From Candidatus Staskawiczbacteria bacterium RIFCSPLOWO2_01_FULL_43_17b (GTDB taxonomy: Bacteria > Patescibacteriota > Minisyncoccia > Minisyncoccales > Staskawiczbacteraceae), in the NCBI GenBank assembly GCA_001820305.1, contig MHPC01000002.1, positions 1-40,969 of the forward strand: a stretch of 40,969 bases of DNA. Direction: 5' to 3'. Numbering within the stretch: the first letter of the stretch is position 1; every line of letters begins with the position of its first letter. Of the stretch, positions 13,704-13,877 are shown piece after piece. Below the pieces are notes generated by a model. The model did no database searches. It saw only the letters and a program-made list of their open reading frames with translations, and was not told where the DNA came from. Position numbers and translations under genes: made by a program.

Positions 13704-13737
13704 GGGTCCATAGTTCAGTGGTAGAATGTCCCGATAA
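13704..13737 (+). pseudogene. 5' fragment of a tRNA-Ile gene (acceptor + D-arm + GTCC CGATAA), remnant of disrupted ancestral tRNA
   Basis: GGGTCCATAGTTCAGTGGTAGAATG nearly identical to 5' 25 nt of tRNA-Ile at 13786; no downstream anticodon-stem partner. Confidence 0.6.
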
Positions 13738-13877
13738 ATTTAGCTTTTGCTAAATTGATACGGGATCCCGTATCAAAATTTTGGTGGGTCCATAGTTCAG
13801 TGGCAGAACGCTGTCCTGATAAGACAGAGGTCGAAGGTCCGATTCCTTCTGGACCCACCAAAATTTTTATCGGGACC
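13728..13877. mobile_element. MITE-like hairpin element copy 1 (TIR GTCCCGATAAA...TTTATCGGGAC; internal palindromes ATTTAGC-TTTT-GCTAAAT and TGATACGGGATCCCGTATCA) enclosing an intact tRNA-Ile
   Basis: same element without cargo at 26734-26811; flanking GTCC(C/T)GATAA on both sides resembles a duplicated anticodon stem-loop target. Confidence 0.5.
13786..13860 (+). tRNA. tRNA-Ile (anticodon GAT), CCA encoded; T-loop TCCGATT (C55)
   Basis: acceptor GGGTCCA/TGGACCC, D-arm GTTC-AGTGGCA-GAAC, anticodon stem CTGTC/GACAG loop CTGATAA, T-stem GAAGG/CCTTC, discriminator A. Confidence 0.85.

Follow-up and report, generated by a model that had tools for sequence, protein, structure and literature searches.

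The 40,969-nt stretch analysed here (the window) represents positions 1 to 40,969 of contig MHPC01000002.1 from Candidatus Staskawiczbacteria bacterium RIFCSPLOWO2_01_FULL_43_17b (assembly GCA_001820305.1) and carries two copies of a small palindromic element, A1 and A2. A1 encloses an intact tRNA-Ile(GAT) gene and is itself inserted in an older tRNA-Ile(GAT) gene. Relatives in other genomes of the Candidate Phyla Radiation (CPR) show A1 and A2 to be members of a dyad-symmetric family of small palindromic elements of CPR bacteria (Patescibacteria), and we regard it as fairly probable that this family consists of selfish mobile elements, associated with a nuclease, which target tRNA genes and bring along a rescue copy of them. 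The anatomy of the elements, their distribution as a family, the nesting of tRNA genes, the in-frame copies within protein genes, and the association with a GIY-YIG nuclease are direct observations. From these we infer that the nuclease mobilises the element and that the outer tRNA gene is dead.

A tRNA gene nested within a tRNA gene

The 20-nt palindrome TGATACGGGATCCCGTATCA occurs exactly twice in the window (13756-13775 and 26763-26782), and shuffled controls gave no occurrence, even at three mismatches. The original prediction, made from the letters of the window, described two hairpin copies sharing this palindrome, one of them with a tRNA gene; the exact 20-mer, the alignable ends, and the tRNA calls by ARAGORN and Rfam bear this out. 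Alignment of the two copies extends from TCCCGAT to ATCGGGA, confirming these terminal inverted repeats as common to both copies, whereas the outermost bases that had been assigned to the copies and their repeats are flanking sequence. The copies, as delimited by this alignment, comprise the following parts.

13729-13875, forward strand: element A1 (copy 1), 147 nt
13729-13735: left end of A1, TCCCGAT
13737-13756: hairpin 1 of A1
13756-13775: central palindrome of A1
Hairpin 2 of A1: stem AAAATTTTGGT / ACCAAAATTTT, enclosing the inner tRNA gene
13786-13860, forward strand: inner, intact tRNA-Ile(GAT) in the loop of hairpin 2, called by ARAGORN and Rfam (70.4 bits), with encoded CCA
13869-13875: right end of A1, ATCGGGA
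26737-26808: element A2 (copy 2), 72 nt, with no open reading frame (ORF) and no tRNA
26744-26764: hairpin 1 of A2, ATTTAGC-AAA-GCTAAAT
26763-26782: palindrome of A2
Hairpin 2 of A2: AAAATTT-ATACT-AAATTTT

The hairpin 1 loops differ between the copies (TTTT in A1, AAA in A2); the arms ATTTAGC/GCTAAAT of A2 had been recognised correctly, with one G too many in the loop. In hairpin 2, the ATACT loop of A2 is replaced in A1 by TGGT and the 75-nt tRNA, a real replacement as predicted, although of 79 rather than 81 nt. The inner tRNA-Ile(GAT) is presumed to be the working copy. A2 has the gap gene on one side and a small convergent ORF on the other. A promoter inside the palindrome (TTGATA ...) was considered and rejected, as its spacing does not fit and the A family as a whole does not conserve TTGATA.

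The statement that copy 1 encloses a tRNA gene was correct but overlooked that copy 1 itself splits an older one. The first 18 nt of the tRNA (GGGTCCATAGTTCAGTGG) recur at 13704 and its last 26 nt (AGGTCCGATTCCTTCTGGACCCACCA) at 14172-14197, and their recurrence on either side demonstrates that A1 is nested in a second, interrupted tRNA-Ile gene, which is further split by an unrelated insertion, B1.

13664-13692, forward strand: promoter-like site (TTGACT, 17 nt, TG-TAAAAT) with 10/12 matches plus the TG extension, ending 12 nt before the outer tRNA-Ile
13704-14197, forward strand: outer (older) tRNA-Ile(GAT) gene, whole
13704-13728, forward strand: outer segment 1, positions 1-26 (acceptor 5' strand and D arm)
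13876-13898, forward strand: outer segment 2, anticodon arm CCGTC-CTGATAA-TGTGG and variable region
13899-14171: element B1, a 273-nt palindromic insertion unrelated to A, with a 29-bp terminal helix
14172-14197, forward strand: outer segment 3, T arm, acceptor 3' strand, and CCA, identical to the corresponding part of the inner tRNA

A1 separates position 26 of the outer tRNA from position 27, with nothing duplicated, and B1 enters where the variable region meets the T stem. Deleting both in silico yields an ARAGORN call of tRNA-Ile(GAT); as end-to-end removal restores the exact tRNA sequence, the target-site duplication that had been proposed for inspection is absent. Compared with the inner gene, the rejoined outer tRNA has three G.U pairs and the mismatches C31xU39 and A49xC65. 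In the segment 2 stem, one compensatory pair change, two G.U pairs, and the C31xU39 mismatch set it apart from the inner copy, and the two genes can be told apart by diagnostic bases (GGTAGAATG-CCGTC...TGTGG in the outer, GGCAGAACG-CTGTC...GACAG in the inner). The promoter-like site at 13664-13692 likely now drives the inner tRNA.

Over 13150-14950, Rfam at E<=1 returned the inner tRNA alone, with no family for A1 or B1, no group I core, and no ribozyme, and no group I ribozyme reached the gathering threshold anywhere in the window. Folding and reading of the sequence at the junctions between exon and element gave no bulge-helix-bulge, revealing instead a continuous 7-8 bp helix (TCCCGAT/ATCGGGA) lacking 3-nt bulges. 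The sequence of the A1 locus is identical or nearly so in nine independently assembled contigs of the same strain, over the stretch that each covers, and the locus is therefore not an assembly artefact.

A dyad-symmetric family with tRNA cargo and a GIY-YIG nuclease

An exact 18-mer was found in two further CPR genomes, one of Saccharibacteria and one of Staskawiczbacteria, and a metagenome scan with a three-part pattern identified 50 loci (designated by L numbers) with 39 distinct elements that share consistent ends. Approximately seven GC-rich metagenome matches (L015, L027, L036, L039, L051, L052, and L062) were left out as likely chance, and a scan of viral contigs gave no matches. The original prediction was to be given up if the two window copies were the only ones and lacked consistent ends and target-site duplications; further copies with consistent ends do exist, and the duplications are absent. 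The common plan consists of (G)T-CCCGAT, hairpin 1, a GGATCC-centred palindrome (ATACGGGATCCCGTAT or ATCGNGGATCCNCGAT), hairpin 2, and ATCGGG-A(C), with the left end varying as [T/C]CCCGAT. The conserved positions show perfect dyad symmetry, reading identically on either strand, and each element contains four copies of an ATCCCG(T)AT-like motif. The hairpin segments are distinct in sequence in 74 of 78 cases and still pair; their perfect stems have a median of 8 bp, compared with 2.1 bp in shuffled controls. Two folds are predicted for each element, one a pair of bulged hairpins and the other a perfect four-way junction.

The dinucleotides bordering CCCGAT...ATCGGG are mostly GT...AC; since the T and the A are the first and last bases of the element itself, the host bases on its two sides are mostly G^C, with G^G, G^T, A^C, and A^T also seen. 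Wherever the uninterrupted target sequence is known, namely in the tRNA cases, the insertion is exact and no target duplication is present, and neither TnpA nor TnpB was seen in any of the A-element contexts examined. The family spans different CPR classes with unrelated flanks. A fixed structured site used repeatedly for insertion, the other possibility raised initially, does not fit approximately 40 copies in unrelated flanks, protein genes included. The flanks of L014 and L058, considered as scrambled tRNA-Ile pieces, proved on reading to be 5' leaders of a KH-domain protein gene. No description of the A scaffold, its tRNA cargo, or the nested tRNA genes was found in the searchable literature.

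Occupancy of a cognate tRNA gene by A elements was observed in the window and at L017, L044, L074, L079, and L083. At L017/L056, an intact tRNA-Ala(TGC) lies in hairpin 2, and its host element is inserted at anticodon position 35/36 of an older tRNA-Ala (CATTTG/TCCCGAT...ATCGGGA/CAATGA); at a second level, this older tRNA-Ala lies within another element, inside the 5' part of a still older and more degenerate tRNA-Ala, and the outer layers also include tRNA-less elements in the D loop and near 26/27. A tRNA-Ala within a tRNA-Ala was likewise found at L044, L074, L079, and L083. The split was always at 35/36 in five independent tRNA-Ala insertion events at the loci of four relatives, every element at 35/36 carries a replacement tRNA, and in every case the anticodon and orientation of the cargo tRNA are those of the interrupted gene. 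The earlier view of a non-autonomous element that captured a tRNA thus holds insofar as A1 is a small member of a repeated family with consistent ends and a tRNA on board, although this tRNA has the appearance of a rescue copy, matched to the gene that the element targets, rather than of random cargo. Exact removal of one to three elements gave callable outer tRNAs at L074, at L083 (three elements), and at the second level of L017. At L044 and L079, the 3' part of the outer gene is truncated and no tRNA was called, indicating that the outer copy is dispensable there. Compensatory stem-pair changes between outer and inner copies, read by eye, suggest that the cargo tRNA came from a diverged lineage and was not a fresh local duplicate. 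In some relatives, the complete tRNA in the hairpin 2 loop has a leader complementary to ACCA and the trailer.

Eight A elements lie within long ORFs. Their lengths are divisible by 3 without exception (8/8, against 30% of the other copies), and seven of the eight share one reading frame, (S/P)R..NTGSR(M/I)P..SxSG. In a RecG protein, the A-derived 19 residues form an insertion relative to the Thermotoga maritima structure (PDB 1GM5). Divisibility by 3 together with read-through suggests that these copies are probably translated and not spliced. All eight are in-frame palindromic repeats in proteins, in the manner of Rickettsia palindromic elements (RPE); A1 and A2 lie outside ORFs. When approximately 50 minimal elements were deleted in silico, a tRNA was reconstituted in none of 477 constructs; no tRNA gene that would otherwise be live was thus seen to be interrupted by a tRNA-less element alone.

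The loop of hairpin 1 at L044 contains an 83-aa ORF with a GIY-YIG catalytic domain, and the same contig carries a full-length and a minimal element. Among homologues of this ORF at >=56% identity whose contexts were fetched, all seven are situated in the A scaffold and fill the loop of hairpin 1. Three are intergenic and tRNA-free (L068 between ligA and ftsW, L071, and L076 between atpA and atpG); the other four carry a tRNA-Ala in hairpin 2 and are sited within a tRNA-Ala gene. A 46%-identical homologue in a Nomurabacteria genome adjoins a tRNA-Thr with a duplicated 5' part. These element-borne nucleases, approximately 80 aa in length, match Pfam PF01541 (E 1e-14 to 1e-16) and retain the catalytic Y, Y, G, R, H, N, and E invariantly; their nearest solved relatives are UPF0213 proteins, with weak E-values, and, more weakly, I-TevI. 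A1 and A2 have no ORF and hence no GIY-YIG cassette of their own; given the nuclease in relatives of the same scaffold, we file them as ORF-less derivatives. The window itself contains a single GIY-YIG gene:

9365-9628, forward strand: 87-aa GIY-YIG ORF, a distant paralogue of the element-borne nucleases

This ORF was considered as an element-borne nuclease and rejected. It has no element scaffold, nor do its orthologues at L065 and L067, which are syntenic with the peptidase gene; it is therefore probably a host gene. A hairpin (ATCCCGT-TTT-ACGGGAT) lies at 9706-9722, 78 nt past this ORF. Its arms are both 7-mers of the A central palindrome in swapped order, and it could be a solo half-site or a remnant.

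The B family and other features of the window

B1 belongs to a second family, unrelated to A, with a conserved core of approximately 200 nt and long terminal helices that differ between copies while staying paired. Of the copies in the window, one lies in the outer tRNA-Ile, one over the start codon of a gene with a metallo-beta-lactamase fold, and one in the 16S rRNA gene.

14605-14879: element B2, with the core of B1 and a different 34-bp terminal helix
39277-39543, reverse strand: element B3, 267 nt, in helix 6 of the 16S rRNA gene, reverse to B1 and B2

Further B loci were found at L005 (~11561-11833) and L018 (1392-1587). At window position 14143, L005 switches to another B copy beside an rpmG-like ORF, reflecting either an assembly chimera or a rearrangement. 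At L074, an 18-nt hairpin (TGCCTGCCGGTAGGCAGG, 2491-2508) occupies the variable region of the outer tRNA-Ala(CGC), close to the point at which B1 enters the outer tRNA-Ile (the junction of the variable region and T stem). The 16S rRNA gene (39202-40969) contains two insertions, B3 and one of ~884 nt at the 530 loop with a 199-aa LAGLIDADG ORF (40212-40811); neither had a group I or group II match in Rfam.

The window is CPR chromosomal DNA, and its S11 peptidase matches a protein of Candidatus Staskawiczbacteria RIFCSPHIGHO2_02 at 100% identity. Downstream of the S11 peptidase gene, approximately 410 nt (13227-13640) are free of ORFs and end in a strong terminator-like hairpin (13602-13634); Rfam at E<=1 gave nothing for this region, which may encode a small RNA not yet described. 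At 5214-5314, 6213-6328, 15716-15765, 35807-35828, and 37647-37766, degenerate repeats of a CCCTAA/TTAGGG-like kind (TAAACCCTAA..., TTTAGGGTCTAGGG...) are present as inverted pairs around gene ends and tRNA-Gln, and a further CPR contig has similar GTCTAGGGT repeats after a tRNA-Thr (L014, ~1760-1800). At 22986-23414, 27-nt inverted repeats with 96% complementarity surround a 117-aa Trp-repressor-like ORF (23019-23372), and the beginning of this unit shares 76% identity with 29761-29884, where another small ORF starts. An 835-aa ORF (6635-9142) has Pfam matches to the shoulder domain of the major vault protein, an unusual feature in so small a bacterial genome.

A proposed mechanism, its rivals, and its implications

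According to the explanation we favour, that of a nuclease-associated element carrying a rescue copy, the nuclease would cut tRNA genes by preference and the element would be copied into the break. As the element would stay in the RNA, the gene that was hit would die, and the only survivors would be insertions that supply a working copy of the same tRNA, transcribed from the promoter of the old gene. The intact inner copy would then be open to renewed attack, potentially producing nested layers, and in the window the disabled outer tRNA-Ile would later have taken up the unrelated element B1. A1 would then be a derivative that bears a tRNA but no ORF, and A2 a minimal one resembling those in intergenic DNA and ORFs. 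On the more specific proposal of a natural bacterial "cleave-and-rescue" gene drive, our judgement is evenly divided. In such a drive, a tiny GIY-YIG cassette on a four-way-junction palindrome would destroy the resident essential tRNA gene and supply its own, leaving nested fossils, while decayed cassettes would become palindromes resembling MITEs (miniature inverted-repeat transposable elements) that are translated in proteins.

Several points weigh against this explanation. The metagenome pattern required an exact core, and the conservation of the core is thus partly an ascertainment effect. No pair of filled and empty sites is available: every contig of the same strain carries A1, with no presence/absence polymorphism. 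A synteny search for the empty site on contigs of S11 peptidase homologues gave no orthologous tRNA-Ile locus, because gene order around the peptidase is not conserved. The window holds no nuclease-bearing element, its sole GIY-YIG ORF being the distant, scaffold-less paralogue. Several outer tRNAs are nearly intact after removal of the elements (window, L074, and L083), and excision at the RNA level would give the same picture. Homing by break repair needs flank homology and does not account for insertions in unrelated ORFs and intergenic sites; nor does the mechanism account for the first capture of a tRNA or for the pairing of leader and CCA. The compensatory upkeep of the hairpins could also mean a host-selected structural role.

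The main rival, which we regard as unlikely, is that the A elements (and B1) are true intervening sequences, excised from the precursor with ligation of the exons, in which case the outer tRNA-Ile would be functional and the inner one a passenger. This idea is supported by the restoration of ARAGORN-callable tRNAs upon removal at the exact ends (window, L074, L083, and L017 level 2), the recurrence of insertion positions (D loop, 26/27, and 35/36), the use of 35/36 as a group I intron site in Patescibacteria tRNAs (PMC13011429), and the many excised insertions in CPR rRNA genes (PMC11270868). However, the elements lack a ribozyme signature and, at 72-147 nt, are shorter than group I introns, and their junctions read as a continuous helix with no bulge-helix-bulge. 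We know of no protein-dependent tRNA splicing pathway in bacteria, which also counts against excision. All copies within ORFs keep the frame and are read through, in no case was a minimal element seen to be the sole interruption of a tRNA, and a replacement tRNA is present in every 35/36 element. In addition, the outer copies at L044 and L079 are truncated, and the outer tRNA of the window bears the C31xU39 and A49xC65 mismatches as well as three G.U pairs.

We think it rather improbable that the elements are host-selected structural or protein-binding sites (similar to repetitive extragenic palindromic [REP] sequences, a bidirectional terminator, or a four-half-site operator or recombination site) spread by duplication rather than by an activity that the element encodes. 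Their perfect dyad symmetry with four ATCCCG(T)AT-like motifs, the retention of hairpin pairing through compensatory changes, the flagging of the palindrome in a terminator scan, and the position of A2 between convergent genes would suit such a role. Conversely, copies occur in protein-coding and tRNA genes, where a terminator or operator would do harm, full-length members consistently embed a nuclease ORF, and the family extends over different CPR classes in unrelated flanks.

Descent from an insertion sequence (IS) with a DDE transposase (IS630/Tc1 or IS200-like), as a classical MITE mobilised in trans that captured a tRNA by chance, appears decidedly unlikely. The short, ORF-free form, the terminal inverted repeats of 7-8 bp, and the many copies in differing flanks are what a MITE would present. 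Nevertheless, there is no target duplication, including TA, where the uninterrupted sequence is known, and the dyad-symmetric conserved positions are unlike IS200/IS605 ends. The suggested link to IS630/Tc1-mariner or IS200-type ends was not supported, as ORF-bearing relatives with the same ends encode only the ~80-aa GIY-YIG domain and no transposase. Furthermore, the cargo tRNA always matches the interrupted tRNA, whereas random capture predicts otherwise. Lastly, a local rearrangement or assembly artefact without general meaning is scarcely credible: metagenome assemblies do break or jump at repeats, many contigs end near the locus, and L005 switches to another B copy at 14143, but nine independent assemblies from different samples agree over the stretch covered and nesting of this kind is seen again, with differing sequences, in at least five other organisms.

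The GIY-YIG homing genes, such as the phage T4 Seg genes (including SegB in a tRNA cluster) and I-TevI, together with "intronless homing," share with the A family the catalytic domain, a selfish cassette directed at conserved genes (tRNA genes among them), and the coexistence of ORF-less and ORF-bearing forms. Unlike these, the A nuclease has only approximately 80 aa with no DNA-binding domain and is placed in a hairpin loop of a dyad-symmetric scaffold; the cassette lies within its target gene with no intron and carries a full replacement gene, and minimal derivatives have spread to non-homologous sites. Group I introns at 35/36 of Patescibacteria tRNA genes, some encoding homing endonucleases (PMC13011429), occupy the same hosts, the same target class, and, in the tRNA-Ala relatives, the same point. 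In contrast, A elements have no ribozyme, are 72-147 nt long when ORF-less, are probably translated in ORFs, and carry a replacement tRNA, with the host gene probably not restored by splicing; moreover, the window copy lies at 26/27. CPR rRNA genes contain GIY-YIG-encoding insertions that resemble neither group I nor group II introns (PMC11270868). Judged by description, these may be the same family as the A elements, both being CPR-specific, GIY-YIG-encoding, and non-intron, although that report concerns rRNA genes only and makes no mention of tRNA as target or cargo, of minimal derivatives, or of a scaffold that is palindromic.

RPE and prokaryotic MITEs (PMC10969869) are likewise short palindromes in intergenic DNA, RNA genes, and, in frame, ORFs, where they are translated (probably so in the A family), with short copies devoid of transposase. 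Compared by description only, the A family differs from them in sequence and host, lacks target duplication, and has a candidate autonomous GIY-YIG form and tRNA gene cargo. REP doublets forming hairpins (REPINs) and their associated transposases (RAYTs) offer a further parallel, the A element also being a doublet of inverted hairpins with a possible single-copy mobilising gene; however, no RAYT/HUH gene was present among the scanned ORFs of the window, and a GTAG motif was not seen either. Integrative elements directed at tRNA genes similarly preserve tRNA function after insertion, but they restore a 3' segment, whereas A elements hold a whole tRNA and have no integrase or att duplication.

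If the nuclease-and-rescue explanation is true, these elements would represent a third route by which a homing element is tolerated in an essential gene, beside self-splicing introns and inteins: an essential RNA gene would be occupied by a homing-type element with no ribozyme, thanks to a spare copy of the gene. It would explain why tRNA genes in CPR genomes occur nested or in fragments and why contigs break at tRNA loci, where annotation pipelines will miscount tRNA genes, and would provide a candidate origin for the non-intron GIY-YIG insertions in CPR rRNA genes, likened here by description only. The nuclease of approximately 80 aa may recognise a defined DNA structure. The elements would also be a source of lineage-specific peptide insertions in CPR proteins, and tRNA genes would be able to move horizontally as cargo.

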